Assembly (NCBI GenBank): GCA_964187785.1 | Contig: OZ076409.1 | Span: 71,798,001 to 71,862,000, forward strand | Source: Amphiscolops sp. MND2022 | Taxonomy: Eukaryota | Direction: 5' to 3' | DNA length: 64,000 nt | Shown here: in pieces, positions 1-63,993 of the stretch | How positions within the stretch are numbered: position 1 is the first letter of the stretch | How the letters are laid out: the number at the start of each line of letters is the position of its first letter | Notes under the pieces: model-generated | Databases searched by the model: none | What the model was told of the DNA's origin: nothing | The model's input: only the letters and a program-made list of their open reading frames with translations | Made by a program: the position numbers and the translations under genes

Positions 1-183
1 ACAACTATAAATTGTTTGTTTTTCACCGTAATTAGTTTACGACCCATCACCCTATGTCACGGCACCGTCATTAGTACAACGCCACATAGTGTTGCGACGT
101 GCACAGTCTGTGGGCATGCCGAGGCATGCCCTTCGACGACGTATGCCGAATACCGCGGGCCTACGCCCGCGCTCCCCGGCTAG
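1..183 (+). mobile_element. 3' end of a unit truncated by the window edge (alpha end, CGCGGGC-CTAC-GCCCGCG hairpin)
   Basis: Conserved core at 77-183 ending in CTAG. Confidence 0.6.
112..131. promoter_or_regulatory. Palindromic protein-binding site GGGCATGCCG-AGGCATGCCC, a 19/20 match to the p53-family element (representative; present in all 25 unit ends)
   Basis: Two adjacent RRRCWWGYYY decamers with zero spacer and one mismatch. Function is not demonstrated. Confidence 0.5.
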
Positions 184-1459
184 GTGGTCGTTAGCATGGG
201 ATTTTCTTTATGAGCGTAGTCCACTTTTTTTAGGCCGGGGTAGGGTCCCGGGCCGTTACCAATTTCTTACGGAGGAAAAATGTGAAAATCTGCGAGTTTA
301 AAAAATTGGCCCGTACGATTTGGCTGAAAATTGGCATACAGCATCGTCTTGGGAAACAAATGACTTTGTCCTAGTGTCATTTTGCCCAGAAAATTCAAAA
401 AGTTGGTCAAATTGAAAATTTTTTGACCGTCTAAGGCAAAAATTTGACATTTTCGCTTTTTTTGGCCAATTTTCTCAGAATTGGTTGATTTTAGTGCAGT
501 GAGTCATAAGAGGTTACAAGGTCTGCAAGTAGCCATCAATCGGCTTGCATAATCAGATTTTGTCAAAAGTGTTTAGTTTTTTCAAAAATTCACACTTTTT
601 TTTATTTCAGTGTTTTTTGATACTTTTTATTGAATTTTTTCTAAGTTTCACTAAATTTTTTAAAAATGTTTTAAAACACTTTTTTGCACGTTTTTGATGT
701 TTTTCGCTCTCCCATATAGGTTTTCGCATACGGGGAAACTGAATCTGGCAACTAAATAACTTTATTCTGCAGTTCAACTTTCGCCATTTTTAATTGTTGA
801 AAAATCACTCATTTTCAACCTAACGAGTGAAAATATCAGAATTTAAAAACATAAAGTTGAGTTTAAGGAGACTTACAGGTGGAAACAAATGCTCAGAAAC
901 AAATAGATTTCTTGTATTAGCCAAAGAAAGCCTTTAAAATTCTTTTTACTTTCTTTAAATCAAATTTCAACTATTTTTAAGAAATTTGGCAGTGAAAAAA
1001 TTTATAATTTTTAAATTAAAAAAAACTTGCTTTGTTGGTCATTTCCGTTTGTCATTATTAGCTGTGCAATTCACCAACACGTTTCAAGTTATTTTGACCC
1101 AATTTGAAAATTTTTAATACTGCATAATCTATCCGAGAGAACGAAACAGTTGTGTACATTCCATCTCCCTCCTGGGGGAGATGAGAATGTACTTGCCAAA
1201 GTCCAGGTACTACAGACCATATTTGTTTTTATGCGACACCGTCTATACTAATGCACATGAATACAAATTGTTTGTCTAAATTTTACTTCTGACTTGCCGT
1301 ATGCTGTACGTTTGGTACTGACAATACCCATCATATACATAACAAGCGTCAACGCCACATACCCTTACCAACGCCCATAGTCCGTAGGCATGCCGAGGCA
1401 TGCCTTTCGACGACGCGCGCCAAACACAAGCGCGCCCGCACTTTTGCGGTAGCAGCTAG
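184..1459 (+). mobile_element. Unit U1, 1276 bp, divergent body, B-type hairpin, putative non-autonomous element
   Basis: Bounded by GCTAGGTG junctions. Body unlike the 2 kb family. Shares the B hairpin and its flank (gtccaggtactacag..catatttgtttttatgcgac) with U23. Confidence 0.6.
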
Positions 1460-3446
1460 GTGGGCGGGGGTAATTCCCCAACAAAAATTACGGCCGGCGG
1501 GTTGGGTCCTGCCGGACGTCAAATAGCAAAGAATATCTAGTAGGAAACGGCGACACAGAATCGCGATTTTTAAATCTAACCACAATTTTTTGGACTTGGA
1601 GTGCATGCGGCCCTGAAATGCCCATACGAATCGAAGTTCCTGCTGACGTTAAGCGATTGAAATAATATATAAAAAGTTATGGCCCATTTTTCACTCACAA
1701 AGAAGGGTAAAATGAGGAAATTTTTAACAAAGTCGCTGATAACTCAAAATGTGTTAATTTTTGGACTTTGACTGTGAAACAAGCTCGGAACCTTCATTTC
1801 GTGGCTGTGGCATTGCACTGAACACAAAAGATGTAAAGTTTTTACATTTTTTGAAAATTCGAAATTTTTGAAATTTTTTTCACTACTATCAGGACCCCAT
1901 ATGTCAAAAACGCCTCAGAAAAAATTTTTTATTTGCTTTAAATTGGAAACCTTGGTATCCATGGTTTCTGTCGGATCCTACTCGCAGTCAAACACCCAAC
2001 AGTTTGCATCCAATGTGGAAATAAAAATTTTTTCGGGGTCATAAGCGTTTCACAAGGATTTCTCAACTTAGTTTCAATTTACAAATTGGTCACATTGAAC
2101 ACATTATTTTCATCGAAGCGCGTCAGATACCGCCCTAAAGCTCACGAACGGTCCTACTGGCAACGTAGCAACCATTTATAGTAATATAAAAGATTAAAAA
2201 ATTTTTTTCACCCGGTCTTCAGTCATTTTTCAGTCATTCGGAACTTAACTTAGAAAAATTTCGACCAAAATACCCATTTTTTGTCAGGTCGAAAAATCAA
2301 ATTCAGATTTTTAAGCAAAATTATTAACTCTGACGTAACTCATGGGGCCCATGATACTCAAAACAACGATTGACACTGGTATCAATGGCTCCAATAACAT
2401 ATGAGTCGCGATCGGACGTTATTTTGAGCAATACGTCTCAATTGAGGTAAAGATCTCGCAAGCCAGCGATCACTCTCAAATGTGATTTCATCAAAAATTT
2501 ACTCACTTTTGTCAATCATTATGTGCACAGAATGCGTAGGGTGCGTTTCAGCACTATAATGAGATTTTTGAATGCATCGAGTTGCTCAAGGGGTGGTACG
2601 AGACATTTTTGTCCCATATACTACTGTATTTTCCAAAATTTTTAGCCCAATATCTGGAAATACAAACTTGACAAAATACTTTCAACTACTTTATTCAAAG
2701 GTTACAATATAGATGAACACTGTGGTTGATCAGAAACTTTCATCTCTTTCGTTTTCCGAAATATTTTCCTTCGCATGTGTTATATTTGTATCACAAAAAA
2801 AAATCGAAACTGAAAAATACGCTATTTTGGTAATATAGAATCGCAATGATTGTGCCTAAAAACTCTTTAAACACTTCTAACGCGACCTTACGCACCCAAA
2901 ATGATCGAAAATGCTATTCACAATGGTGACATGTGCTCTTTCAACAATCCTGGCTGGACAAGGTTTGCATATTTTTCAAGTACCTGTCAGCTGAATCTTG
3001 TGATAGCCTTTTCAGTTGGCCTTGTGTCAACTTGGGAAGGCTATCACATCAAAAAACCATCAACAAAAATAATTTTTGTTTATTGGATCTTACAGTCGAT
3101 ACTTTTTTTCGTGATTCTATACTACCGTTAGTATATTTCATCAGGTCACCTTACGATTGCATTCAGTCTTTGATAAAAACCTATGAACTCAAAGTCACAT
3201 TTATATATTTTTTTGCCAGAAAATAACATCAAAAATATCTAAAATATATAAAATAGAGTCTTTAACATTTTTACGTTTCAAGTTTTTGCCGTTATTAGGC
3301 CAATCAACGTCCTAGAGCCACATCCTGCCACATACTGTACAACGCCACATAGTGTTGCGACGTGCACAGTCTGTGGGCATGCCGAGGCATGCCCTTCGAC
3401 GACGTATGCCGAATACCGCGGGCCTACGCCCGCGCTCCCCGGCTAG
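1460..3446 (+). mobile_element. Unit U2, 1987 bp, 2 kb family, A hairpin, alpha end
   Basis: Junction-bounded; its 5' part closely matches U18. Confidence 0.6.
3000..3047 (+). other. A-type internal hairpin GTGATAGCCTT..AGTTG(G/A)C-CTTGT-GTCAACT..AAGGCTATCAC (representative; 16 units)
   Basis: Imperfect inverted repeat; also at 4987-5034, 40690-40739, 44684-44731, 60744-60786 and 63644-63684. Confidence 0.9.
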
Positions 3447-5442
3447 GTGGGCGGGGGTAATTCCCCTTCAAAAAATTCGGCCGGCGGGTTGGGTCCTGCC
3501 GGACGTCAAATAGCAGAAAATACCTATTAGGAAACGGCGACACAAAACGGCGATTTTTAAATCTAACCACAATTTTTTGGACTTGGAGTGCATGCGGCCC
3601 TGAAATGCCCATACGAATCGAAGTTCCTGCTGACGTTAAGCGATTGAAATAATATATAAAAAGTTATGGCCCATTTTTCACTCACATAGAAGGGTAAAAT
3701 GAGGAAATTTTTAACAAAGTCGCTGATAACTCAAAATGTGTTAATTTTTGGACATTGACTGTGAAACAAGCTTGGAACCTTCATTTAGTGGCTGTGGCAT
3801 TGCACTGAACACAAAAGATGTAAAGTTTTTACATTTTTTGAAAATTCGACATTTTTGAAATTTTTTTCACTACTATCAGTACCCCATATGTCAAAAACGC
3901 TTCAGAAAAAATTTTTTATTTGCTTTAAATTGGAAACCTTGATATCCATGGTTTCTGTCGGAACCTACTCGCAGCCAAACACTCAACAGTTTGCATCCAA
4001 TGTGAAAATAAAATTTTTTTCGGGGTCATAAGCGTTTCACAAGGATTTCTCAACTTAGTATGATTTTACAAAATGGTCATTTTGAACACAATATTTTCAT
4101 CGAGGCTTGTCGGCTATAGCCTTAATGTTCTAGAACGGTCCCACTGGCAACGTAGGAACCATTTATAGTAATGGAAAGTAATAAAAAAATATTTTCACCC
4201 GGTCTTCAGTCATTTTTCAGTCATTCGGAACTTAACTTAGAAAAATTTCGACCAAAATACCCATTTTTTGTCAGGTCGAAAATTCAAATTCAGATTTTTA
4301 CGCAAAATTATTAACTCTGACGTAACCCATGGGGCCCATGATACTCAAAACAACGATTGACACTGGTATCAATGGCTCCAATAACATATGAGTCGCGATA
4401 AGACGTTATTTTGAGCAATACGTCTCAATTGAGGTAAAGATCTCGCAAGCCAGCGATCACTGTGAAATGTGATTTCATAAAAAATTTACTCATTTTTGTC
4501 AATCACTATGTGCACAGAATGCGTAGGGTGAGTTTCAGCACTATAATGAGGTTTTTGAAGGCATCGAGTTGCTCAAGGGGTGGTATGAGACATTTTTTCC
4601 CTATATACTACTGTATTTTCCAAAACTTTTACCCCATTATCTGGAGAAAGTAACTTGACAAAATACTTGCAATAACTTTATTTAAAGGTTACAATGTAGA
4701 TGAACCCTGTGGTTGATCAGAAACTCTCATCTCATTCGTTTTCCTGAATAATTCCCTTCGAATGTGTTACATTTGTAGCAGAAAAAAAAACCGAACCAAA
4801 AAAATACGCGATTTTGCTGAGATAGAATCGCAATGGTTACGCCTAAAATCTCTTTAAATACTTCTAACGCGACTTTACGGACCCAAAAAGATTGAAAATG
4901 CCATTCACAATGCTGACATGTGCTCTTTCTACGATCCTGGCTTGACAAGTTTTGCATATTATTCAAGTACCTGTTAACTGAATTTTGTGATAGCCTTTCA
5001 AGTTGGCCTTGTGTCAACTTGGGAAGGCTATCACATCAAAAAACTTTCATCAAAAATACTTTTCGTTTAAACGATATTGTATTCGATATTTATTTTCGTG
5101 ATTTTACACTACCGCTAGTACCTTCCGCCAGGTCAGCTGACGATTGCAAGCAGCCTTTGTTAAAAACCTATGAACACCAATATTTTTTTCTCATACTTTT
5201 GTTGAAGAAAAGTACAAATAAACAATAAAAATATAATTTTAACCTTTAACAACACTAATTTGTCTTTATCGTTATCAGTCCTACCACCCATACCCATCAT
5301 CATCCTATGCCATGGCCCGGTGATTAGTCCAACGCCACATAGTGTAGCGACGCCCACAGTCTGTGGGCATGCCGAGGCATGCCCTTCGACGACGTATGCC
5401 AATTTTAGCGTAGCCCGCGGTCACTACCGCGGTAGCAGCTAG
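3447..5442 (+). mobile_element. Unit U3, 1996 bp, 2 kb family, A hairpin, beta end (CCGCGG-TCACTA-CCGCGG)
   Basis: Junction-bounded; body near-identical to U7. Confidence 0.6.
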
Positions 5443-5473
5443 GTGGGCGGGGGTAATTCCCCAACAAAAAAAT

Positions 5474-5501
5474 CGGCCGGCGGGTCGGGTCCTGCCGGCC
5501 G
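5474..5501 (+). other. 5' subterminal stem-loop CGGCCGGCGGG-TCGGGT-CCTGCCGGCCG (representative)
   Basis: Found 31-50 bp after the junction in the units examined, with different stems but a similar loop. Confidence 0.85.
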
Positions 5502-6259
5502 TCCAAAATCAAAATCCTCCTAGTAGAAAACGGCATGTCAAACGAGCTATTTTTTTATTTAACCGTTAGAATTTGGGTTTAGATTGCATGCGGCCATGAA
5601 ATGGCCATACGAATGGAAGTTCTTGCTGACGTTTTGCGATTGAAACACTTTATAAAAAGTTATGGCCAATTTGTCATTCACCTAGAAGGGCGAAATGAGG
5701 AAAATTTTAACAAAGTCACTGATAACTCAAAATGTAATAATTTTTGGAGTTTGACAGTGAAACAAGCTTGGAACTGTCATTTCGTGGCTGTGGCATTGCA
5801 CTGAACACAAAAGATGTAAAGTTTTCACATTTTTCGAAAATTCGACATTTTTGATTTTTTTTTCACTACTATCAGTACACTATATGTCAAAAACGCCTCT
5901 GAAAAATATTTTTATTTGCTTAAAATTAGAAACCTTGGTATCCATGGTTTCCGTCAGTACCTACTCGCTGCCAAACGCTCAACAGTTTGCATACAATGTG
6001 AAAATATAATTTTTTTCGAGGTCATAGGTGTTTCACAAGGATTTCTCAACTTAGTATCTATTTACAAATTGGTCATTTTGAACACGTTATTTTCATCGAA
6101 GCGTGTCAGATACCACCCTAATGCTCACGAATGGGCCTACTGGCAACGTTGGAACCATTTTTAGTAATAGAAAGTATTAAAAAAATATTTTCACCCGGTC
6201 TTCAGTCATTTTTCAGACATTCGGTACTTAACTTAGAAAAATTTCGCATCAAAAACCCA

Positions 6260-7400
6260 TATTTGGTAGGGTCGAAATTTGAAATTCAGTTTTTTATGCA
6301 AAATTATTAACTCTGACGTAACCAGTGGAGCCCATGATACTCAAAAACACGATTGGGACTGGTATCAGTGGCTCCAATAACATATGAGCCGCGATAAGAC
6401 GTTATTCAGAGCAAACGCTCTAAATCGAAGTAAACATCTCTGAAGCCTGGGATCACAGTGAAATGTGATATAACCAAAAGTTTACTCTTTTTTTGTCAAT
6501 CACTATGTACACAGAGTGCTTAGGGTGAGTTTCAGGACTATAATGAGGTTTTTGAAGTAATCGCGCTGCTCAAGGGGTGGTATGAGACTATTTTTTCCCA
6601 TATACTACTACATTTCCATAAGTTTGCAGTCCATTGTCTTGGAAAGATAACTTCACAAAAACAATTTTTCTACTCTATTCAGTTATTAGAATAAAGTTGA
6701 ACACTGTGGGTGATCAGAAATGCTCAATTCTTTTGGTTTTTAAAAAAATTCCTTCGCATTCGTTACATTTGTGGAAGGAAGGTTATCAGTAGCTCCAAAA
6801 AAAAACGAAATTTAGCACGAACAGACATGCAACGATGCAAAGCAAAAACGTTTTTACAACTTCCGACGTCATTATTTTACCCAAGAATCTCGAAAATATT
6901 ATTCGCAATGCTGTCATTCGCTATATATACGATCGCGGTCAATTTACAAACATTTAGATTTCATTGTTCTGCTTGAAAACCAATTTTTGTCAGGTCGAAA
7001 TTTTAAATTTTGCCTGGGGAGCAATACCCTTCACGCTGAAGTAAACAGTGGGGCCCAAGTTACTCAAAAACAAGAAAGAGACTGCTACAATATGTCCTAA
7101 TAACATATGGACCACGATAGTACGTTTTTCACACAAAAAACTCTCATCCGAAGTAAATATGTTGAAAGCTTTTAATCACCGTGAGAAGTGATTTCATCAA
7201 AAGATAACTCTTTTTTGTCAATCACTATTTACACAGAATTTGTAAAGTTAGTTTGAGTCATGAAATGAGGCTTTACCGTAATATGGGTTGCTCAAGGTGT
7301 TATATAAGACAAAAACTTCCTCTTTTCTACTAGCTTCTTCAAATATTTCAACTCTTTGTCACAATAAGTTAATTTTCAAAATCTCTTTGAAATGTATCTT
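6260..7400 (+). repeat. Old diverged ~720 bp tandem duplication inside long units
   Basis: The motif series ggtcgaaa / g(g/a)gccca.g.tactcaaaaaca / aataacatatg / tcaatcactat / gctcaagg recurs ~723 bp later (for example ~6325 and ~7048). Confidence 0.75.
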
Positions 7401-7677
7401 TATGTTGGGGTGAAGTCTAAGAACAATAACTATGATCGAAGAATGCTAGTACTGGTGTTTGAACCATGTCCGGATGAACAAATCACAATATCATCAAAAA
7501 ATTGTTCCCTTTTTTGGTTATTTTGGCAGTACTAAAAATGTTAGCCGATAAATAATTTTTTCGATGGCACCATTGGATTCCTCTCAAAAAGTTGATTATA
7601 TGACCTGTGTAATAACCCCGTATCTTTTCAATTTAAATATATTTAAAAAGCCAACTATTTTGACCAAAATCCTAAAA

Positions 7678-8945
7678 ATCATACCATTTCCTAAAAATTT
7701 TCAAATGCACCCCATTTGACGTATAAGATAAGCACAGAAAACTATCATATACCGATCAACTCTACTCCTATTGTAGATTATTAGAATTTTGTTTAGAATG
7801 AATTTTGATGAATAATAAAAAAATTTTGAACCCTCCAAAAATGGGCCAAATTTACACGAAAAAATTGACCTTAAAATACCAAAATGTTAAAAAATCATCA
7901 AAACCCAGGCTTCTTGGGGTTCTATCAACTCCGCGTGGTCCACAGAGTATGCTAAAACAGGTTTTACCCGTTTTTGAGCAATATGTGAAAAAGCCGACAT
8001 TTTTGGGAAAGAAAAACATACCATTTCCTAAAAAAATTCAAATGCACGTCATTTGCCGTATTAGAATAGCACAGAAAACTATCACATACCAATCAACTCT
8101 ACTTTCATTGCAGATGAACAGAATTTTGTTTAGAATAAATTTTACCGGATAATAAAAAAATTTGAATCCTTCAAAATTGGGCCAAAAATACACGAAAAAA
8201 TGGACCTTAAAAATTTAAAATGTCAAAAAATCATCAAAACAACTGCTTCTTGGGGTTCTATCAACTCCACGAGGTCCACAGAGTATGCTAAAACAGGTTT
8301 TACCCGTTTTTGAGCAATATGTGAAAAAGCCGACATTTTTGGGAAAGAAAAACATACCATTTCCTAAAAAAATTCAAATGCACGCCATTTGCCGTATGAA
8401 AATAGCACAGAAAACTATCACATACCAATCAACTCTACTTTCATTGCAGATGAACAGAATTTTGTTTAGAATAAACTTTACCGGATAATAAAAAAATTTG
8501 ATTCCTTCTAAAATGGGCCAAAATTACACGAAAAAATGGACCTTAAAATTTTAAAATGTCAAAAAATCATCAAAACCACGGCTTCTTGGGGTTCTATCAA
8601 CTCCACGTGGTCCACAGAGTATGCTTAACCCGGTTTTACCCATCTTTGATCAAAATGTGAAAATACCGACATTTTTGGAAAAGAAAAACAGGCCATTTTC
8701 TAATAAATTTCAAATGCACGCCATTTGCTGTATGAGAATAACACAGAAAGCTGTCACATACCGATCAACTCTACTTCCATTGTAGATTATCAGAAGTTTG
8801 TTTAGAATAAATTTTGAAGGATAATAAAAAAATTTGAAACCATCAAAAATGGGTCAAATTTACACGAAAAAATTGACCTTAAAATATCAAAATGTCAAAA
8901 AATCATCAAAACCACAATTTCTTGGCGTTCTATCAACTCCATATG
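7678..8945 (+). repeat. ~336 bp internal tandem repeat, ~3.8 copies (U4)
   Basis: Anchor ttgg(g/c)gttctatcaactcc at ~7914, 8250, 8587 and 8922. Confidence 0.9.
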
Positions 8946-9230
8946 ATACCAAACCAGGTACTGCCAATCGTTTGAGTTATAATAAAAAAACGTCTTTTTT
9001 GGCAAGAATTCCATACCATAAATAATAATCATGTTCCATATAAGAAACGAATCATTTCAGATATATACCCTGTTCATTTTTTTAATATTACCGATTATTA
9101 ATTTAATAGATGTTTTGAATGTGAGCTTCCTAAAAGGTTCAGGTGTGATGATACGTAAATAGAACCTTAGTTTCATCGAAATCTCAATTGAATATGTCCA
9201 ATCTTAACCATCAGATAACAAGAAACACTT

Positions 9231-9273
9231 AAGTACATTCCATCTCCCCATCGGGGGAGATGAGAATGTACTT
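9231..9273 (+). other. B-type internal hairpin AAGTACATTC-CATCTCCCC-loop-GGGGAGATG-A-GAATGTACTT (representative; 8 units)
   Basis: Inverted repeat with a single bulged A; also at 1154-1192, 13994-14035 and 62292-62334. Confidence 0.9.
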
Positions 9274-10205
9274 TCGAGAAGCCAAATACGTCCAACATTC
9301 AAACTTTTGTAACTTTGTATGTAACTCCTGAAACGAAGAAGGAATAAAATTGTTTCTGGTACATACATGAGTCTTTACTTCAGCTTCTATTTCTGCTGAA
9401 CAAAACCATTCGACTCTTTTGCCGGACTTAAGATCGATTGTATTACCCAGTGAACAAAGGCATGATTGAAAACGTTTACTACTTTGTTCATAATTTTCCG
9501 GCCTTCCGAAATGATGAAACGTCCACATAACTAAGATAGCAAGTGAATGACTGCGAAATGCACCTTATTAGATGAGGTAAATAACGTGTAAAACTCTCCT
9601 TTATCCTAACATGAGGTTGAGTAATGATCATTTGAGAATAGTTTGATATGTGAATACAATAGTATAAAACAAGTACATTTTATATGAATAACGCCGTGGA
9701 AAGCGTTCAGAAAGGACAGTAGGCTTGTTTGGAATATGTATGTGTGGTGTCCCTTGGTGGCGTTCGCTTAGTGTATATGTCGAGGGGTATTCGAGTTGTT
9801 ATGATAGAATTTACACACAAGTCTTTTGTTTTTTGGTTTTTTTAAAATGTCGTTAAGTACCTGCATTCTATCCCCTTCTCAGAGATGACGTGAAGTTACG
9901 TTTGCTAAATAATTGTCATCGAAAGATCACACTCCCGACGAAATTAACTATCTTAACACGTGTTTAGAATTTTAAATGAACAACCGTATAAGATTTTTTT
10001 ATTTCATTGAGTTTGATGAAGTCTTTTGTTCTTCTCACTACTATTTCAACCAATACACATATCCGTTACCATATCACATGTCTCCATTAGTACAACGCCA
10101 CATAGCGTTCCGACGCCCACAGTCTGTGGGCATGCCGAGGCATGCCCTTCGACGACGTATGGCAAATGGAGCCATGCCCGCCGTCTTTACGGCGGTAGCG
10201 GCTAG

Positions 10206-13200
10206 GTGGGCGGGGGTAATTCCCCAACTAAAAATTCGGCCGGCGGGTCGGGTCCTGCCGGCCGTCCAAAATCAAAATCCTACTAGTAGAAAACGGCATG
10301 TCAAACGAGCTATTTTTTTATTTAACCGTTAGAATTTGGGTTTAGATTGCATGCGGCCATGAAATGGCCATACGAATTGAAGTTCCTGCTGACGTTTTGC
10401 GATTGAAACACTTTATAAAAAGTTATGGCCAATTTGTCAGTCACCTAGAAGGGCAAAATGAGGAAAATTTTAACAAAGTCGCTGATATCTCAAAATGTGT
10501 TAATTTTTGGACTTTGACTGTGAAACAAGCTTGGAACCTTCATTTCGTGGCTGTGGCATTGCACTGAACACAAAAGCTGTAAAGTTTTCACATTTTTTGA
10601 AAATTCGACATTTTTGAAATTTCTTTCACTACCATCAGTACCCCATATGTCAAAAACACCTCAGAAAAAAATTTTTATTTGCTTTAAATTGGAAACCTTG
10701 GTATCCATGGTTTCTGTCGGAACCTACTCGCAGCCAAACACCCAACAGTTTGCATCCAATGTGAAATAAAAAATTTTTTCGAGGTCATAAGCGTTTCACA
10801 AGGTTTTCATGATTTAGTATTAATTTACATAGTGGTCATTTTAAACATAAAATTTTGGTCCAGGCATGTCGGATATAGTCTGAATGCTCACGAACGGTCC
10901 TACTGGCAACGTATGAACCATTTATAGTAATAAAAAGTATTAAAAAATTTTTTTCACCCGGTCTTCAGTCATTTTTCAGACATTCGGAACTTAACTTAGA
11001 AATTTTTCGAACCAAATACCCATTTTTTGTCAGGTCGAAAATTGAAATTCAGCTAATAAAGCAAAATTTTTTACTCTGACGTAACCAGTGGGGTCCATGA
11101 TACTCAAAAATACGATTGGGACTGGTACCAATGGCTCCTATATCATATGAGCCGCGATAAGATGTTATTTCGAGCAATACGTCTCAATTGAGGTAAACAT
11201 CTCGCAAGCCTGGGATCACAGTGAATTGTAATTTTATCAAAATTTTACTCATTTTTGTCAATCACTATGTGCACAGAGTGCGTAGGGGGAGTTGTAGCAC
11301 TATAATGAGGTTTTTGAAGGCATCGGGTTGCTCAAGGGGTGGTATGAGACATTTTTTTCCTATATACTACTGTATTTTCCAAAACTTTTAGCCCATTATC
11401 TGCAAAAACTAACTTGACAAAATACTTTGAGTTACTCTACTCAAAGCTTAGAACATAGATGAACACTGTGGTTGATCAGAAACTATTTACTATTTTGTTT
11501 TTAGAAAAAACTGCCTTGCATGTGTTACACTAGTGGCAGGAAAAATACCAGTAGCTCCAAAAATCACAAATTTGGACGGACAGACTTGCAATGATGCAAA
11601 GCAAAAACGTTTCAACAACTTCTGACGCCACTTCTTTTACCCAAGAGGTTCGAAAACGCCATTAACAAGGCTGACATTTGCAATAAATAAGATCGAGGTC
11701 CATTTACTAACACTTAGGTTTCAAATTTGTTTCTGAGAAACCCATTTTTGTCTGGTCGCAATTTCAAATTTAATCTGGGAAGCAAAATTTTTCACTCTGA
11801 AGCAAACCGCTGGGCCCAAATTACTCAAAAACAACAAAAAGACTATCACCATATGCTCTAATAACATATGAGATGCGACAGTATGCTTTTAACACAAAAA
11901 CTCTCATCCGAAGTAAACATGTTGAAAGCCTTGAATCACCGTGAGAAGTGATTTCATCAAAAAATATTTCTTTTTCGTCAATCACTATATACACAAAACC
12001 CGTTGTGTTAGTTTCAGCCGTGAAATGAGGTTCTACCGTAATATGGGTTGCTCAAGGTGTTGTATAAGAGAAAATCGTCCTCTTTTCTACTAACTTCTTC
12101 AAATATTTCGACCCTTTGTCACACGAAGTTAAAATTCAAAATCTCTTTGAATTGTTTCTTTAGGTTGGGATGAAGTGGTAGAACAATAACTTTGATCGAA
12201 GAATGCTAGTATTGGTGTTTGGACCATGTTTGGATGAACAAATCGCAAAATCATGAAAAATTTGTTTCTTTTTTTGGTTATTTTGGCAGTACTAAAAATG
12301 TTAGCTGACAAATAATTTTTTCGATAGCACCATTGGATTCGGCTCAAAAAGTTGGTTATATGACATGTGTAATAACGCCGTATCTTTTCAATTTAAATAT
12401 ATTTAAAAAGCCAACTTTTTTGACCAAAATCCTAAAAATCATACCATTTCCTAAAAAATTTCAAATGCACCCCATTTGACGTATAACAATAGCACAGAAA
12501 ACTATCATATACCGATCAACTCTACTCTCATTGTGGATTATTAGCATTTTGTTTTGAACGAATTTTGATGGATATTAAAAAATTTTGAACCCTCCAAATA
12601 TGGGCCAAAATTACACGAAAAAATTGACCTTAAAATTTTAAAATGTCAAAAAATCATCAAAACTACAGCTTCTTGGGGTTCTATCAACTCCACGTGGTCC
12701 ACAGAGTACGCTAAAACAGGTTTTACCCGTTTTTGAGCAATATGTGAAAAAGCCGACATTTTTGGGAAAGAAAAACATCCCATTTCCTAAAAAAATTCAA
12801 TTGCACGCCATTTGCCGTATGAGAATAGCACGGAAAACTATCACATACCGATCAACTCTACTTTTATTGTAGATGAATAAAAATTAGTTTAAAACAAATT
12901 TTGACGGATATTAAAAAATTTTAAACCATTAAAAAATGGGCCAAAATTACACGAAAAAATTGACCTTAAAATTTTAAAATGTCACAAAATCATCAAAACC
13001 ACAGCTTCTTGGGGTTCTATCAACTCCACGTGCTCCACAGAGTACGCTAAAACAGGTTTTACCCGTTTTTGAGCAATATGTGAAAAAGCCGACATTTTTG
13101 GGGAAGAAAAAATAGGCATTTCCTAAAAAAATCAAATGCACGCCATTTGCCGTATAAGAATTGCACAGAAAACTATCATATACCGATCAACTCTACTCCC

Positions 13201-14952
13201 ATTGTAGATTATTAGAATTTTATTTTGAATGATTTTTGATGGTTATTAAAAAATTTTGAGCCCCCCAAAAGCGGGCCAAAATTACACGAAAAAATTGACC
13301 TTAAAATTTTAAAATGTCAAATAATCATCGAAACCACAGCTTCTTGGGGTTCTATCCACTCCACATGGCCCACAGAGTATGCCAAACCAGGTTTTGCGCG
13401 TTTTTGAGCAATATTTGAGAAAGCCGAGTTTTTTGGGGAAGAAAAACATAACATTTCCTAATAAAATTCAAATGCACGCCATTTGGCGTATGACAATAGC
13501 ACAGAAAACTATCACATACTAATCAACTCTACTCTCTTTGTAGATCACCAGAGTTTTGCTTAGAATAAATTTTGATGAATATTTGTAAATTTTAAACCCT
13601 CCTAATATGGGCCAAAATCACACGGAAAAATTGACCCTAAGGTATTAAAATGTCAGAAATTCATCAAAACCACAGCTTCTTGGGGTTCTATCATTTCTAT
13701 ATGACTTTCAGAGTATACCAAACAAGGTATTAACATTGGGCGATAATTAAAAACACCAATTTTATTTTAGAAGAAAACCATAATAAGTTCAATATAAGAA
13801 GTGAATCATTCCATATATATACCCTGTCTTATATTTTAAATTAGCGATAATATATATACTTGATGTTTTTTGAAAGTGAGCTTCATAAGTGGTTGAGATG
13901 TGATAATACGTAAATGGATTCCAAGTTTCATCGAAATGTCAATGGAATACGTCCAATCAACTTCAATCTTAACAATTAGATAACAAAAAACCTAAGTACA
14001 TTCCATCTCCCCATCGGGGAGATGAGAATGTACTTTTCAAAAACCAAAAACTTAGATGTTTTTTTTGTAACACTTACTGTAACTGCTGAAATGATGAAAG
14101 AATAATTATGCTTCTAATAACTCCATGGTTTTTTGCTTCAGCATTTTTTTTGCAGAACAAAACCATCAGACATATTTTTCGCAGTTAAGTTCGATCGTAT
14201 TACCCAGTGAACAAAGGTATGGAAGGATGTTTACAAGTTGTTTCAAAACTTTCCCGCCTTCCAAAATAATGAAACGTCTACACAACCAAGATAGCAAATG
14301 AATGAATGCGGAATGCATCTTATTAGATAAGATAAATAACGTGTAGAACTTACCTTTATCTGAAGTTGACGTTGATTTATGATCTTTAGAGGATAGTTTG
14401 ATTTTTGACCATAATAGTGGGAAACTAATTATTATATGAATGATGGCGTGGAAAGCGTTCAGAAATTGTAGTATTTTGGATTCGAGCATGTATGCGTGGG
14501 TTCCTTTGGTGGCGTTAGCTTAGTGTACATGATGGAAGTTTTCGATCTGTTATGATTAATTTTACTCACGAGTCTTTGTTTTTCCTATTTTTTTGCCATT
14601 AAGTACATTCATTCTATCCCCTTTTCTGAGAATGTACGTTTGTCAAATGACTGTCATCCAAATTTTGCATTCCCGAAGAGTTTAAATACATAACACGTGT
14701 TTAGCGTTTCCAAATCACAACCGAGTAACATTCTATTTTTTTTCTCAAAATTGATAATGGTTTTGATTTTGGTGTCTTCTACTTTCATCATCCATCATAA
14801 CAACCACCTTACCATGTCTCTCGCTTGTCTTCATTTTACAACGCCACATAGTGTAGCGACGCCCACAGTCTGTGGGCATGCCGAGGCATGCCCTTCGACG
14901 ACGTATGCCAAATTTAGCAATAGCCCGCGGTCACTACCGCGGTAGCAGCTAG
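10206..14952 (+). mobile_element. Unit U5, 4747 bp, long type L2, B hairpin, beta end
   Basis: Near-identical to U9; collinear with but diverged from L1. Confidence 0.6.
12438..13700 (+). repeat. ~336 bp internal tandem repeat, ~3.8 copies (U5)
   Basis: Same anchors and spacing as in U4. Confidence 0.9.
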
Positions 14953-17900: not shown

Positions 17901-19712
17901 TATGAAAATAGCACAGAAAACTATCACATACCAATCAACTCTACTTTCATTGCAGATGAACAGAATTTTGTTTAGAATAAACTTTACCGGATAATAAAAA
18001 AATTTGATTCCTTCTAAAATGGGCCAAAATTACACGAAAAAATGGACCTTAAAATTTTAAAATGTCAAAAAATCATCAAAACCACGGCTTCTTGGGGTTC
18101 TATCAACTCCACGTGGTCCACAGAGTATGCTTAACCCGGTTTTACCCATCTTTGAGCAAAATGTGAAAATACCGACATTTTTGGAAAAGAAAAACATGCC
18201 ATTTTCTAATAAATTTCAAATGCACGCCATTTGCTGTATGAGAATAACACAGAAAGCTGTCACATACCGATCAACTCTACTTCCATTGTAGATTATCAGA
18301 AGTTTGTTTAGAATAAATTTTGAAGGATAATAAAAAAATTTGAATCCATCAAAAATGGGCCAAAATTACACGAAAAAATTGACCTTAAAATATCAAAATG
18401 TCAAAAAATCATCAAAACCACAATTTCTTGGCGTTCTATCAACTCCATATGATACCAAACCAGGTACTGCCAATCGTTTGAGTTATAATAAAAAAACGTC
18501 TTTTTTGGCAAGAATTCCATACCATAAATAATAATCATGTTCCATATAAGAAGCGAATCATTTCAGATATATACCCTGTTCATTTTTTTTAATATTACCG
18601 ATCATTAATTTTATAGATGTTTTGAATGTGAGCTTCCTAAAAGGTTCAGGTGTGATGATACGTAAATAGAACCTTAGTTTCATCGAAATCTCAATTGAAT
18701 ATGTCCAATCTTAACCATCAGATAACAAGAAACACTTAAGTACATTCCATCTCCCCATCGGGGGAGATGAGAATGTACTTTCGAGAAGCCAAATACGTCC
18801 AACATTCAAACTTTTGTAACTTTGTATGTAACTCCTGAAACGAAGAAGGAATAAAATTGTTTCTGGTACATACATGAGTCTTTACTTCAGCTTCTATTTC
18901 TGCTGAACAAAACCATTCGACTCTTTTACCGGAGTTAAGATCGATTGTTTTACCCAGTGAACAAAGGCATGACTGAAAACGTTTACTACTTTGTTCATAA
19001 TTTTCCGGCCTTCCGAAATGATGAAACGTCCACATAACTAAGATAGCAAGTGAATGACTGCGAAATGCACCTTATTAGATGAGGTAAATAACGTGTAAAA
19101 CTCTCCTTTATCCTAACATGAGGTTGAGTAATGATCATTTGAGAATAGTTTGATATGTGAATACAATAGTATAAAACAAGTACATTTTATATGAATAACG
19201 CCGTGGAAAGCGTTCAGAAAGGACAGTAGGCTTGTTTGGAACATGTATGTGTGGTGTCCCTTGGTGGCGTTCGCTTAGTGTATATGTCGAGGGGTATTCG
19301 AGTTGTTATGATAGAATTTACACACAAGTCTTTTGTTTTTTGGTTTTTTTACAATGTCGTTAAGTACCTGCATTCTATCCCCTTCTCAGAGATGACGTGA
19401 AGTTACGTTTGCTAAATAAATGTCATCGAAAGATCACACTCCCGACGAAATTAACTATCTTAACACGTGTTTAGAATTTTAAATAAACAACCGTATAAGA
19501 TTTTTATATTTCATTGAGTTTGATGAAGTCTTTTGTTCTTCTCACTACTATTTCAACCAATACACATATCCGTTACCATATCACATGTCTCCATTAGTAC
19601 AACGCCACATAGCGTTCCGACGCCCACAGTCTGTGGGCATGCCGAGGCATGCCCTTCGACGACGTATGGCAAATGGAGCCATGCCCGCCGTCTTTACGGC
19701 GGTAGCGGCTAG
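14953..19712 (+). mobile_element. Unit U6, 4760 bp, long type L1
   Basis: Near-identical to U4 and U11. Confidence 0.6.
17186..18450 (+). repeat. ~336 bp internal tandem repeat (U6)
   Basis: Same anchors and spacing as in U4. Confidence 0.9.
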
Positions 19713-39159: not shown

Positions 39160-41152
39160 GTGGGCGGTAGGTTTCCCGTAGTCAAAAAAAAATTGCAGGC
39201 CGGGGTAGGGGCCCTGGCCGAGGCAAAATACCATAGAAAAGGTACCAAATTATGTGAGTTTAGAAAATTGAGCCATACAAATTCTCTGAAAATTGCTGTG
39301 TGTACCCTATCGCCCAATCTAAGAACTTTTTCCTGCTGACGTTTTGCTCTCCAAATGTTACTAATATGACTTTTTGAAAAATTTATCTCTCGTTTTTCAT
39401 CACAAATAGTGATTTTGGCAATTTTTGTGAAATATCTCTGATTGCATTAATTTTTGGACGTTGACTGTGAAACAAGGTCGGAACCATCATTTCGTGACCA
39501 TGGCAATGCACTAAACACAAAAGATGTAGAGTTTTTAAATTTTTTGAAAATTTGACATTTTTAAATTTTTTCCACTACTATCAGTACCATATATGTCAAA
39601 ATAACCTCAGAAAAATTTTTTTATTTTATTTAATTTAGAATCCTTGCTATCCATGGTTTCTGTTAGTATCTACTCGCTGCCAGAGACTCAACAGTTAGCA
39701 TCGAATCTGAAATTAAAAATTTTTTCGAGGTCATAGGTGTTTCACAAGGATTTCACAACATAGTCTTGTTTTACAAATAGGTCATTTACAACATCATATT
39801 TTCATCGAGGCATGTCGGATATAGTCTTATTGCTCACGAACGGTCCTACTGGCAACGTAATAACCATTTATAGAAATATAAAGTTTTAAAAAAATCTTTT
39901 CACCCGTTCTTCAGACATTTTTCAGACGTTCGGAACTTAACTTAGAAAAATTTCGTCTCAAAAACCCATTTTTCGTCGGGTCGAAATTTGAAATTCAGCT
40001 TTTGAAGCACAAATATGCACTCTGACGTAACCAGTAGGGCCAATGATACTCAACAACACCATTGAGACTGGTATCAGTCGCTCCAAAAACATATGACCCG
40101 TGATAAGACGTTTTTTCAACAATACTGTTCAATTGATGTAAACATCGCGGAAGCCTTGGATTACAGTGAAAGTTGATTTGAACGAAAATTTACTCTTTTT
40201 TGTCAATCACTATGTAGACAGAATGCGTAGGGTAAGTTTCAGCACAAATATGAAGATGTTGAAGGAATCGGGTTGCTCAAGGCGTGGTATGAGACACTTT
40301 TTTCTCATATACTAGTGTTTTTCAAAACCTTTTCGTTAAATATCTCGAAAAGCAAACATTAAAAAATACTTTCTGATATCTAATTTAATTCCTAGAATAT
40401 TAATGAATCATGTGGTTGATCAGAAACTCTCTACTTTAATGTTTCCAGAAAAAAATCCCTTCCCATGTTTTATATCTGTAGCAGTAAAAAAAGTAGACGC
40501 TAAAAAATACGCTATTTTGCTAAGATTGAATTGCAATTGTTTAGCTTTAAAACTCTTTTAATACGTCTAACGCCACCTTAAGGACTCAAGATGATTGAAA
40601 ATGTCAATCACAATGCTGACATGTAGTCTTTCTACGATCCTGGCTGGACAGATTTTGATTATTTTTCAGGTACCTGTTAACTGAATCTCGTGATAGCCTT
40701 CTAAGTTGACCTTCTGCGTCAACTTGAGAAGGCTATCACTAAAATAAACTAAATTCTGATTTGTATGTTTGTTCCTAACGTCTTTTGGTACGATCGTCTT
40801 ACGGTTAGTTGGTTAAACCAGGTCGCTTATACTTCCACAATTTTCGACCACCGTGCGTGTATTCGGTTCACACGACTTTACATTTTCAGTCGTTTGTTTT
40901 CGATAACTATCACAATGTACTGCCATTAGCGCAAAATTCATACTAGTACTTGGTTGGTTGAAATACTTAAACAACTGTTTCCATAGTTATTCGCGGTGAT
41001 GGTACAATCCGCGCGCCTACATACCTACGGCGTCTTGTCACTACAACGCCACATAGGGAAACAACGCCCATAGTCCGTAGGCATGCCGAGGCATGCCTTT
41101 CGACGACGCGCGCCAAATCTATGCGCGCCCGCACTTGTGCGGTAGCTGCTAG
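39160..41152 (+). mobile_element. Unit U14, 1993 bp, divergent 2 kb family member with a U1-like 3' end
   Basis: Distinct first ~270 bp and a distinct region after the A hairpin; ends cgacgacgcgcgccaaa..gcgcgcccgcac like U1. Confidence 0.6.
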
Positions 41153-58526: not shown

Positions 58527-61324
58527 GTGGCGGGGGGCTGTCCCCAATAGAATATAGTGAGGTAGGGTAGGGTTCCCTACCGAACATTCAGTACTGAAAG
58601 ACTCTTGTAGTATGAAAATTTTTCGATGTTTTGAGACCGATTTCGGATTCCACCCGTCAGAAGTTTATGATTTTTTGGCCCCCACCCAGATTTTGGGCAC
58701 TGATCGCCCCCCCACCAGGTTCCATACCCGTGGTTTCGTTGTGACGGGTACACGAGCGACCGTTAGGGGTCAATCAGGGGGTAAAATTTATAAAAGTGTG
58801 AATAACTTTTCCCCCCGTCGTTTTAGCAGGTCCGGTCACTAGTAAAGGTTTGTTGGGCATCATGCAGTGGGTACGGGGGGCCAAACAAAAATTTTCTATC
58901 ATGCACCGTTACGGACTTGGCCCCCCGCCCAAACCGCTATTTTACCGGAAATTGCACTTTTTGAACGGGAAGGAGTCGTCTGAGCGCGGAGTCGTTTGGT
59001 AATGTTTTGTAGAGCATCTGAAGACGTGATGGGGGACATGTAGTTTGCCGACCCCAGTTTACCCCTCGGACGGGAAATGACCGTTATGTTAGTTTTAAAA
59101 TTGCCCCCCGTCAACTTTAACCGCTATTTCTGGTGTGAAGGCGTCGGAACAGCGTGTCGGGTGCTATATATCAAAAGTAGCTTTAAACAAGGACCTATCA
59201 GAAACATGTGGTTTGGGACCCTTTGAACGGACCCGTTAGCCGGAAATAGGGTGACCGCCTCCTTTTTTTGGTGTTAAAACCGTAAAACGGGCATTAAAGT
59301 GAAATTATCTCGTGAACGCGTGGAGCAATCGTGTCCATCATTCCTACAAGGTTTCATACCCATGACATGGTGTCTTCAGGGGGGCAAACAGATCAGCGCT
59401 ATCTATCACCGTTACGGACTTTGCCCCCCAGCCTAACCGCTATATTACCGGAAACTGCCCTTTTTGACCGGGAAGGAGTCGTCTGAGAGTGGAGTCGTTA
59501 AGTAATGTTTTGTAGAGCATCTAGAGACGTGTTGGGGGACATGTAGTTTGCCGACCCCTGTTTACCCCTCGGACGGGAAATGACCGTTATGTTAGTTTTA
59601 AAATTGCCCCCCGTCAACTTTAACCGCTATTTCTGGTGTGAAGGAGTCGGAATAGCGTGTCGGGTGCTACATATCAACAGTAGCTTTAAACAAGGACCTA
59701 TCAGAAACATGTGGTTTGGGACCCTTGGAACGGACCCGTTAGCCGGAAATAGGGTGACCGCCCCCTTTTTCTGCGGTTAAAATTGTAAAACGGGCATTGA
59801 AGTGGAATTATCTTGGAAACGCGTGGAGCTATAGTGTCCTTCACTACTACAAGGTTTCATACTCAAGATACGGTGCCTTCAGGGGGGAAAACAGATTACC
59901 GCTATATATCACCGTTACGGACTTGGCCCCCCAGCCTAACCGCTATGTTACCGGAAATGTCATTTTTTGAGCCAAAAGGGTTAGTCCCAGCGTGGGAACG
60001 TCAGGTAACTTTATGTAGAACTCAATGAGACGAGTTGGGGGATATGGTTTCAGTCACCCCCCGTTGACCCGTTAGACCGGAAACGACCGTTATGTAGTGA
60101 AAAATGTAATTTTTATACTTTTTGAAGGCCATTTAGGGCAGGAAGTATCGGTAATATGTCTTTGGACAGTATACAATGAAAGTTTTGGTGTGAAACAAGC
60201 AATCTGAAATATCCGTTATTATGATTCGGAAGTCACACTAACAGCGAAAATGACCGTTATGTAGTGAAAATTTTTTTCACATTTTTTTTGCTTTCGATAG
60301 GTCCTTCAAGCCAAGAAGTAGCTGTATTAGGTCTTTGGCCACTTTATGATGATTGTGGTGTTGTGAGATGACCGTACGAACTTGACCTTTATAATGCCCC
60401 TGAAGTTGCTGCGGCACGAGAAATTTCAGAAAGTTTGTCTTTTCTGTGTTTTGTTGGAATAAACATTTAATTTCATTAAACCAATGTGCATTCAGGGTGT
60501 TTAGAAAGCTTCAAGAAAAGAATTTAATAGGAAACATGGCGGTGAGAAATAACAAATTGCCACGTAAATCCAACCCCCGTTGGGGAATAAATGTAATAAA
60601 TTGTTTTGGAAGTGCCAATCGACGTGTATTTGCGGATCATAGCCACGGTATTGTCTATTCGTGTTTCTTTTTGAAGACTTTGAACATTTTCACTTTATCA
60701 GCTTGAGGTTTTAACTCTATATGCTTAATAACCGTTACAATATGATAGCCCTCAAGTTGACCTTGTGTCAACTTGAAAGGGCTATCCTTTCACAACTGCG
60801 CAGCAACAGTGTGATTGAGTGATTTAGTTATTATCCAAGGCCAATTTGAACTTCAACAAGATTTTAACCACAATATTTAAAACTATTCATATGATTCTTT
60901 CAAAAGGGTAAATATTTACCTAATATTTGACAAAAAACTCCAACCTTTAATTTGTGGACCGAATAGTAGGAAAACCATGTTTCTTAACGTTGTTGGATGA
61001 AATTCAAAATGATGCTTTTAAAAGAATAACAATTCTTGACACTATAAATTTTTTCTATTTTCCAATAAACTATTTTTCCAAAAGTCTATTTTTCCAATAA
61101 ACATTGTTGATTGATGCCCATTCATAGTGACTGGAAAGTTTTACCAACTGTGGTGTTTTTTTTAATCAGAGGTGAAACCGCTCCCTACCGTCGCATAATG
61201 TAATTCAAGCCGACGCCCACATGCCAACATCAACGCCCACCGTCCGTAGGCATGCCGAGGCATGCCTTTCGACGACGTATGCCAAATCACGCCCCTGCGA
61301 GGTCACTAAAGCGGTAGCGGCTAG
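58527..61324 (+). mobile_element. Unit U22, 2798 bp, unrelated and more GC-rich body with 503 bp internal repeats, A hairpin
   Basis: Junction-bounded; shares only the terminal motifs and the A hairpin with the main families. Confidence 0.6.
58840..60100 (+). repeat. 503 bp internal tandem repeat, ~2.4 copies (U22)
   Basis: Anchor accgttacggactt at 58905, 59408 and 59911. Confidence 0.9.
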
Positions 61325-62606
61325 GTGCCGGTGTTTTTCACGACAAAGAAAGTTGCGCGCTTTGGGTAGGGTCCCGGCGCGCTTTTGGGGTTCATTTTAA
61401 CAACCTGATCTCCCGTTGCACGTATGTCCGATTTTCCAAACTATCCTACCAATTTTGCTGAAATTTTGCATGTGGGTCCCTATGGACATTCTAAGAACAA
61501 ATCCCTACTGGCGTTTTGCCCGGAAAATTTTTTTTGTTGACTTATTGACAATTTTAGGTGCCGAAAATGACGTTTTTTCAAAAAAAAATTTTTTAAGAGC
61601 CCATATCTCGCTCCCAGGTGCCCGGAGCGGGTCGCATGTGGACGTTGATATTGCTAGGCACTTCGTAAGGAGTCTGTAGACAAATTTCGGTTCAGATTGG
61701 ATGAAAATTGATTGAGTAATAGCCGCAAATTGGACGCATTTTGTCAAATTTTTTCGAAACCCCAGTCTATCTCTGCCGTTTTTTGCCCAGATTTTTTTCT
61801 AGACCCTCTCCTAAAGGCCTCCCCTGGCCGGATTACCTCCCAGCAAAACCATTTGGCCCTAAATACGAAGTTTCAGCGTTCTAGCATTCTCGGGCGAAAA
61901 GTTGTGGGACTTAGAAAAATTTTTTTGAAAACGCAAAATGTGTTAAGTCAACTTCAGGCCTCCCAACGTCAAGGAACTTCCACACAACTAGTATTGCAAG
62001 TGAATGCATGTGGAAAGTACTCGGATAGACGAGAAAAATGAGCTATTATAAATCTCTGTAGCTTAACCTGACGTTGACTTATGACAATTTTAGTGTGAGC
62101 TTGCTATGTGAGAAAAAAATTCAAAATTGGAAATCGAAGCTAAGTCTCATCCAAAACTCATCGGAACACGTTCAATCCATCCCAGAGCGGTTTAATTCCA
62201 GCTATATAATGCAGCAACACTATTCAAGACCATTTGATCCACTTACATTAGTTTTGACACCGTATTATTCATCCGAGAGCACAAAACAGTTGAGTACATT
62301 CCATCTCCCTTTCGGGGGAGATGAGAATGTACTCGCTAAAGTCCAGGTACTACAGCCCATATTTGTTTTTATGCGACGCTTTTATGGTTTGTATGCTAGT
62401 GCGTACACGTATTAATCTTTTAACATATTTTTTGTCGTCTGCAGTTTGCTTTTGACTTGACATAAACTGAACGTTTTGTCCTTAAAACATACACATTACT
62501 AACGTCAACGCCCCATCCTTGCATCAACGCCCACCGTCCGTGGGCATGCCGAGGCATGCCCTTCGACGACGTATACCAAGATATACATAAGCGCGGTAGC
62601 CGCTAG
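61325..62606 (+). mobile_element. Unit U23, 1282 bp, distinct body, B hairpin
   Basis: Junction-bounded; B hairpin region homologous to U1. Confidence 0.6.
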
Positions 62607-63993
62607 GTGGTTGGGGCGGTCCCCAGAACGCACAAGGAGGCGCGGGGAGGGTCCTGCGCCGACGTAGAATAATTTCATATAATACTAGTATCCTACATGG
62701 GTGTTTTAGAAGCGATTTTGGAATCTAACCGTAGGATTTGGATAATTTTTTGCATGCGGCCACAACTCGAAATTCTAAGAACTTTTTCCTACTGTCATTT
62801 TCCCCGCAAATTGTTTTTTGTTGACTTATGGCCGAAAAACCGGAAATAACGTCCTTTTTAGACGTTATATCCGAAGTGTTGTCATAACTTTTTTCCAGGG
62901 CATGCTAGCGTTCTCCTTCACTTTTACACTTAGTTGCAGCATCTCGAAATACAACTGGTGGAAAATTTTGGTTGCATTCGGATCACCCCCCACCGAGATA
63001 GAAGGGTTCCCCCCTCCAGATTTACCCCCCAAATTTGCAAAAAAGCCAATTTTGAGCATGAAGCCGAGGATTTAGCGTACCCGCACCCTTCTGATGTTTT
63101 GTTGTACGTATTGGGGTCAATCTGACGACATGTGTGGTTTTCACCCCCAACCCCCCCTGGGACCGGAAATGACACTTTTTTGTGTTTTTTGGCAGAATTT
63201 AGCCTTTTTCATTATTAGACAGTCGTTTTAGGGACTCATAGCAGGATATCGAAATTGAAATACAACCTGATCACAACCCAGTGACAACATGTTGGCCACT
63301 TGGATGTACCATCATGACCGGAAGTGGGGTCAACCCCCCTTTTTGTGACCGCTTTTTGACCTTGTGCACCAAAATGCCAACAACTTGAGGCCTAATGACG
63401 CATTCAAATCTGTACAAAGATAGAGTGTTAGACAACTGAAGTCCCGGAAGATCTTTAGCATATACCGGAAGTTACCCCCATGACCGGAAGTTACCCAATG
63501 TGACCGGAAATGGTCCAAAAATTAATGTAAAGTTGAATTTTTCACTATTTCAAGACCACTTCATTGAACATTTTCAATCCCAAAACTAGCGTACTGGCTT
63601 GTTTTGCTGAATTTATGGAAATTGATGAGCTCTATCACCCCCTATAGCCTTTGAAGTTGACCTTGCGTCAACTTTGGAGGCTATCGATACTGAAAATGAA
63701 CAAGAAAGTACATTGTTGCTCTCGGTTTTTTCCCGTTGTTTTTCCTCAAACTTTCTTGAGACATATACATGGCCGTTAGTTGAAATCAATATTTAGCCCA
63801 TGTTATAGCTGGAGCAGTGAAGCGTTACACAGACTAGTGTGGTTTTGAAATTACATTACTTAAATTAACAACTGACCGTCTTAGACAACTCCACACATTC
63901 ATACCAACGCCCACCGTCTGTGGGCATGCCGAGGCATGCCCTTCGACGACGTATGACGAATCCACTCCAACGACACCCGCAGTCCTCAGCTAG
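62607..63993 (+). mobile_element. Unit U24, 1387 bp, distinct body rich in ACCGGAA, A hairpin
   Basis: Junction-bounded; conserved core at ~63886-63993. Confidence 0.6.

Follow-up and report, generated by a model that had tools for sequence, protein, structure and literature searches.

The window, by which we mean the whole stretch of 64,000 nt of DNA analysed here, carries near the end of every one of its repeated units a 20-mer that resembles a p53-family response element, and one may ask what keeps the 20-mer in place, a p53-family protein of the host or the enzyme that mobilises the units. Both possibilities were offered side by side by the sequence-only reading of the locus. The match to the p53 consensus proved to be real, and a site for the mobilising enzyme fits the observed conservation better than p53 alone does.

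Organization and Composition of the Array

The whole window (1-64000, + strand) is a head-to-tail array in a single orientation, composed of 24 complete units and two cut ends. Each unit is a non-coding cassette, with lengths between 1.3 and 5.4 kb; 14 of the units measure ~2 kb, six range from 4.75 to 5.4 kb, and the four others are 1.28, 1.28, 1.39 and 2.8 kb in length. Unit U1 (184..1459, +) has a length of 1276 nt and a type A internal hairpin, while U2 (1460..3446, +) and U4 (5443..10205, +) exemplify the ~2-kb family (14/24 units) and the 4.75-5.4 kb family (6/24 units), respectively. U22 (58527..61324, +; 2798 nt) has a divergent body and a degenerate subterminal hairpin, and U23 and U24 (61325-62606 and 62607-63993, +) are also divergent. 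In 20 of the 24 units the bodies agree at 78-100% wherever they have parts in common, and near-identical units were found with different neighbours (U3/U7, U10/U21, U5/U9 and U4/U6/U11). Units that had been described as unrelated are in fact distant homologues, with short collinear pieces and internal hairpins in common.

Repeats and length patterns were also observed inside the units. An internal 336-bp tandem repeat occupies 7675-8941 in U4 and 12435-13693, 17183-18447, 25922-27180, 32655-33921 and 53340-55278 in the other long units, with 3.8 copies in five of these units and 5.8 copies in U20. U22 harbors an internal direct repeat (~58896-60095) with a period of ~503 nt and 87% identity. 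The 14 units of the 2-kb family (e.g., 1460-3446 and 39160-41152) keep a length of 1983-2007 nt despite copy differences of up to ~20%, and this narrow range may reflect a constraint on length.

No ORF of ≥150 aa is present in the window. A Pfam scan of 71 frames of ≥58 aa from seven of the 24 units, drawn from four regions (184-3446, 5443-10205, 39160-41152 and 58527-63993), gave no match at the cut-off and five matches that were all below their cut-offs. The best of the five, Flu_PB2_6th in a 77-aa frame at 60280-60510 on the − strand (E 2.4e-5; 24.4 bits against a cut-off of 25), was without a PDB match and is probably a chance match. Among the units of the window, the ORF and Pfam scans revealed no gene for RepHel or another enzyme. 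A search by DNA pattern for an enzyme-coding partner gave no match in the viral_contigs and genome_contigs collections, which are mostly non-animal, so that these blanks are weakly informative; the same search in metagenome_contigs, mostly non-animal as well, gave one match, the contig L001 of 1172 nt. By-eye comparison of the unit ends with motifs of the hammerhead, HDV-like, hairpin, twister and pistol ribozymes, and with an Sm site, a Pol III B box and an LTR/PBS layout, gave no consistent fit.

The 20-mer and Its Match to the p53 Consensus

The 20-mer, RGGCATGCCGAGGCATGCCY, has 25 exact matches on the + strand of the window, one at each of the 25 unit ends, and none in 100 shuffles. The distance from the end of the motif to the G of CTAG is 45-59 nt at all 25 ends, so both its presence at every unit end and its proposed spacing of 45-60 bp before the junction were upheld. 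The G..C form was found in 22 copies and the A..T form in three, with no mixed A..C or G..T form. The first G..C copy (112..131, +) can be described as two GGCATGCC palindromes one helical turn apart or, alternatively, as a 9-bp stem. The A..T copies lie exactly where they had been placed, in U1 (1386..1405, +), in U14 (41079..41098, +), both ends of which are related to U1, and in U22 (61248..61267, +). The divergent units U23 and U24 carry the G..C form (62542..62561 and 63922..63941, +), with no subterminal hairpin in the usual place in U23 and none in U24. A further copy, of the A..T form, was provided by the public metagenome contig L001, where it stands on a divergent unit and is followed by the junction GCGAGGTG, with the end CGAG and not CTRR.

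A p53 response element was defined as two RRRCWWGYYY decamers with a spacer of 0-13. The 20-mer agrees with this consensus at 19 of the 20 positions, with both cores CATG and a spacer of 0, in 25/25 copies and in L001, which bears out the near-perfect match that had been reported. The single mismatch to RRRCWWGYYYx2 is the G at position 10, fixed in 26/26 copies. Across the window, no site with 0 mismatches to the doubled consensus was found, while 25 sites have one mismatch, one site has two and 22 sites have three. A match with ≤1 mismatch is expected by chance at ~1.4e-6 per position, and among random 9-bp-stem hairpins of the same composition such a match occurs at 3e-4, or at 7e-5 with CATG cores. 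The 20-mer resembles R2, TGACATGCCC-AGGCATGTCT, a p53 target listed in the cited portion of PMC5905954. A second, weak p53-like site with an AGGCATGTCG half-site and three mismatches overall was seen inside some units, at 10862, 24349, 37825, 39808, 41809 and 49780.

Conservation and Variation of the Right-End Block

The 20-mer lies within a right-end block (95..141, +) that consists of CRACG..CAY-N-GTC-YGT, the 20-mer and TTCGACGACG, and in which GTC pairs with GAC across a 3x3 loop. An alignment of 14 distinct ends, with E19 left out (extra T after the motif), revealed that the 18 inner positions of the 20-mer, the off-consensus G10 included, are invariant in 14/14 ends. The flanks are equally fixed, with GTC-Y-GT upstream and TTCGACGACG downstream, and GTC..GAC lengthens the stem. 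The conservation that had been claimed for the 20-mer is therefore real, but the 20-mer does not mark its limit, since the conserved block is wider. The inner 18 nt are the best-conserved stretch of the whole system and form the longest invariant run among the 14 units of the 2-kb family, and the 10-mers common to eight divergent representatives come only from this 18-nt core and TTCGACGACG. In U22, U23, U24 and L001, where the subterminal hairpin is missing or degenerate, the block is intact. Because it holds the longest invariant run and, with TTCGACGACG, the only common 10-mers, and because the block outlasts the lost Helitron-type hairpin, the 20-mer is taken as a key signal.

A p53 consensus under selection would show fixed C and G positions, free R, Y and W positions and conservation that stops at the edges of the site. 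A different pattern was observed, in which 13 of the 15 matching degenerate p53 positions (R/Y/W) never vary in the 14 distinct ends. This departure lowers the case for a 20-mer kept by p53 alone, not the case that it can be bound. All 12 stem pairs of the block hold in 14/14 ends, with one pair covarying by a double change and 11 invariant, and hairpin formation at the 20-mer is weakly supported.

The sequence-only reading had cautioned that the paired outer substitutions of the A..T form may represent a single covariation event, and this caution was well placed. We attribute the A..T change to one or two independent events, because the ends that carry it are related (U1 and U14 with 89% identity over the last 110 nt, U22 and L001 with 79% identity over 132 nt) and the flanking states are common to all four A..T ends (U1, U14, U22 and L001). 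The paired change is no evidence for p53, since A..C and G..T would fit RRR/YYY equally well; the change argues for symmetry or pairing, and even for that the evidence is weak.

Around the 20-mer (76-141, all ends), CRACG was observed three times, as CAACGCC(C)AC twice upstream and as CGACG downstream, an arrangement reminiscent of iterated binding sites. Most units start with GTGGGCG, to which the upstream CGCCCAC is reverse-complementary, a match that per unit does not exceed shuffles.

Junctions and Cassette Boundaries

The junction core, GCTAGGTG (179..186, +), contains the cassette boundary, and its counterpart in L001 is GCGAGGTG. GCTAGGT occurs 25 times in the window, always on the + strand and once after each motif, and GTG follows CTAG at 25/25 junctions. 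The type of end correlates with the start of its own unit (rho 0.80, permutation p 0.0005), while no clear correlation with the start of the next unit was seen (rho 0.22, p 0.07). U10 and U21 are 100% alike, and their identity stops 5 nt to the left and 4 nt to the right of the unit ends; the variable 40-54 nt between block and core travels with its own unit. Given the different neighbours of near-identical units, the own-start correlation and the limits of the U10/U21 identity, the units behave as cassettes exchanged at the 8-nt core, with the 20-mer inside the cassette near its right end. A core of 8 nt is too short for ordinary homologous exchange.

Hairpins of the Units

Further hairpins were observed in addition to the stem of the block. 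The subterminal hairpin (154..171, +) stands 12 nt before the end of CTAG, is present at 22/25 ends and has a stem sequence that varies by unit type. At these 22 of 25 ends, a perfect stem of 5-8 bp stops 10-12 nt short of the end of CTAG, in six different hairpin sequences, and such a stem is found in 9 of the 13 distinct 40-mers against 0.67 expected. The left-end hairpin, with a GGG-NNGGGT-YCY top (233..254, +), contains a pair that on the + strand is G.T in seven and G-C in four of the 11 variants. It is present at the corresponding place in all units, and in L001 at ~917-938, with a lower stem that changes freely and a fixed top, and a smaller G/C hairpin precedes it in most units. This hairpin is a candidate for the left-end recognition signal.

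The long internal hairpins fall into two types. Type A (1154..1192, +) was found in eight of the 24 units, at 1154-1192, 9233, 13996, 18740, 27483, 34213, 55570 and 62294, and in L001 (567-605), while type B (3002..3045, +, and 15 more) is present in 16 of the 24 units and never together with type A. Every unit (24/24) carries exactly one long internal hairpin, A or B, 306-973 nt before the unit end, and the two types may serve as alternative signals for origin, priming or processing. In five of the seven type B variants, 2-3 G.T pairs are present and the fold on the + strand is better by 2-9 kcal/mol. The G.T pairs of the left-end and type B hairpins thus favour the + strand, and a stage with a single-stranded + strand is therefore indicated. 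However, G.T-tolerant stems fit RNA equally with single-stranded DNA, which is a point against the Helitron-like reading set out below.

Proposed Mobilisation and Comparison with Known Elements

The reading that we favor, tentatively and at a little under an even chance, is that the 20-mer is the core of the right-end signal for the mobilising enzyme of self-targeting Helitron-like cassettes. An enzyme supplied in trans, presumably of the HUH class, would peel off the + strand and would cut and join within the core, so that a circle is formed. The circle would then be pasted into a genomic junction, since the junction resembles the origin of the circle itself, and insertion one at a time would build the mixed array. 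The end may be marked by binding of the enzyme to the block ~50 nt ahead of the cut, with the block in the form of either a duplex palindrome or a stem-loop. Self-targeted insertion is inferred because of the boundary mapping. The same reading leaves the 19/20 match to p53 (~7e-5 of random hairpins, with CATG cores) as a coincidence or a secondary trait.

For Helraiser, the portions of PMC4778049 and PMC5876387 cited here describe a palindrome of 19 bp that lies 11 nt before CTAG-3′, the formation of circles whose head-to-tail junctions are precise, and cleavage of the plus-strand junction only; the right-end signals that they name are the hairpin and CTAG, with no upstream sequence block among them. 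As described in the cited portions of PMC4778049, PMC5876387 and PMC11417382, non-autonomous Helitron1/HLE1 elements share with the units a hairpin ~11 nt before CTAG, the lack of terminal inverted repeats and target duplication, and one active strand, and head-to-tail junctions and tandem arrays are likewise known for them. The 3′ CTRR of Helitron1/HLE1 is represented by CTAG at 25/25 window junctions, where the boundary is placed only to within the core, and the short hairpin ~11 nt before the 3′ end was found at 22/25 ends. In HLE1 elements the 5′ end is TC and the insertion point is A|T (PMC11417382, the portion cited), whereas neither the 5′ TC nor A|T insertion was seen here and GTG was observed at 25/25 junctions. 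The units also differ from Helitron1/HLE1 in the CGAG of L001, in the joining of different families at a single core into mixed arrays, in an invariant upstream block that is conserved better than the hairpin, and in the single A or B internal hairpin per unit. They work like Helitron1 right ends but are not filed as HLE1, because of the GTG start, the CGAG in L001 and the hairpin that is missing or degenerate in U22-U24 and L001.

HLE2 (Helentron/Helitron2), which has terminal inverted repeats of 11-18 nt and inserts at T|T, was tried and rejected, as the best inverted match was 7-9 nt, at shuffle level (11/24 units). Replitrons are HUH elements with a right-end palindrome and with short direct repeats at both ends, which would look like the shared core of the units; they are placed in plants, algae and protists (PMC10288648, the portion cited), while the units here have no enzyme gene for placement. 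A description of the present system was not found in the literature searched, a scope short of most subscription papers and Repbase Reports. Even if the p53 link fails, a non-canonical self-targeting Helitron-like system has its cis-signals set out in the window, namely the 8-nt core, the invariant block, the end hairpins and the two exclusive internal hairpins, which are needed for finding the enzyme. An enzyme of eukaryotes able to place kilobase cassettes exactly at a defined junction would merit attention.

Alternative Explanations

As judged from its sequence, the 20-mer might instead, or in addition, be a working host p53-family site, maintained because in damaged, stem or germ cells the bound protein opens the junction or drives its transcription, a reading that is possible but that we consider on the unlikely side. 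The enzyme itself would then read the flanks, the hairpins and the core, and in circles and arrays the site would precede the next left end by ~50 nt. The match of 19/20 with CATG cores and zero spacer, with its low chance expectation (1.4e-6 per position, 3e-4 among 9-bp hairpins), speaks for such a site, as does the longest invariant run (18 nt), which coincides exactly with site positions 2-19, with two variable ends that stay R and Y. The cited portions of the literature add that sites which double as inverted repeats are preferred by p53 and p73 (PMC5905954), that p53 sites work inside the non-autonomous zebrafish DNA transposon EnSpm-N6_DR (PMC3485254), that sites of the stress factor HSF-1 are carried in Helitrons (PMC6927752), that the genome of the acoel P. 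naikaiensis, relevant if the host is itself an acoel, has one P53-domain gene (PMC6451197) and that working p53 sites occur in LTRs and L1 as well (PMC5031199). However, 13 of the 15 matching R/Y/W positions are invariant across bodies too diverged to align, while the sites tabulated in the cited part of PMC5905954 vary there; the off-consensus G10 is fixed in 26/26 copies, RRR/YYY does not demand paired changes, the 10 nt downstream are fixed as strongly as the site, and the gene-less units are without a product to induce. The 20-mer is probably open to binding by a p53-family protein of the host, yet so strict a conservation would not be maintained by p53 alone.

EnSpm-N6_DR is likewise a non-autonomous DNA element with full two-decamer p53 sites, but it is a cut-and-paste element with TIRs, a single family dispersed near genes, and its sites were shown to be functional (PMC3485254, the portion cited), whereas the putative site here is common to divergent families in an array and known from sequence. 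The HSE-carrying Helitrons of Caenorhabditis also place sites of a stress transcription factor on rolling-circle elements, though for a different factor and with binding shown (PMC6927752, the portion cited), while here there is one exact candidate site at a fixed subterminal position. It is conceivable, though we think it doubtful, that the units form an animal superfamily of rolling-circle cassettes that builds integron-like arrays by insertion at its own junctions, with a p53-family site fixed ~50 nt upstream of the cut-and-join, so that a host sensor licenses movement. In this equally doubtful licensing scheme, a sensor of DNA damage or of the germline would act on excision, circle replication or insertion, not on a gene. 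If the p53 link is true, a mobile element would be using the genome guardian as a switch for its own movement. Provided that the host is an acoel, the 20-mer would also let the long-debated connection of p53 with transposons be tested directly and at little cost in an early-branching animal.

A structured RNA signal, formed in the block by a GTC/GAC helix, a 3x3 loop and a 9-bp stem, would require the units to move or be processed via an RNA copy. The 12 of 12 pairs that hold in 14/14 ends, one through a double change, and the G.U-type pairs that favour the + strand in the other hairpins agree with an RNA signal, but 11 of the 12 pairs never vary and are thus uninformative on structure. Rfam gave no match at the gathering score and none over the block at E ≤ 10 (1-5600 scanned), no tRNA was found by ARAGORN, and the 25 junctions have no poly(A), LTR pair or target duplication, so we assign this reading a low probability. 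We regard it as similarly improbable that the units are circles of the Crypton kind, which a tyrosine recombinase would integrate at the 8-nt core with the 20-mer as an accessory binding site. The same 8-nt core does flank each unit, much as direct repeats of 4-6 bp flank Cryptons (PMC3212892, the portion cited), yet the inverted arms of 11-13 bp around a 6-8 bp core by which a tyrosine recombinase site is recognised are absent: the best 12-bp match has a mean of 6.4 against 6.3 in shuffles and a maximum of 8 (24 junctions). The geometry of hairpin and CTAG and the strand-biased G.T pairs would also be left unexplained by such a recombinase. The array could finally be a composite satellite reshuffled by unequal exchange, with the block conserved only by gene conversion. 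Exchange is possible, as the bodies of 20 of the 24 units are 78-100% alike over shared parts; nevertheless, the boundaries fall in the 8-nt core rather than in the longer conserved block, each unit retains its own variable 40-54 nt between the two, and the divergent unit of L001 carries the same block, which makes a satellite very improbable.

Related Sequences Outside the Window

Besides L001, the motif is present in a contig of 519 nt from run X1, which crosses a junction, and in a contig from run X3 the block is joined to an upstream flank that is absent from the stretches compared. Short interior pieces of U23 and U24 (61500-61541, 61821-61859, 61979-62018 and 62713-62756) match very deep contigs of run X1, with a depth of up to 25000, which suggests a high-copy related repeat in some organism of that run.
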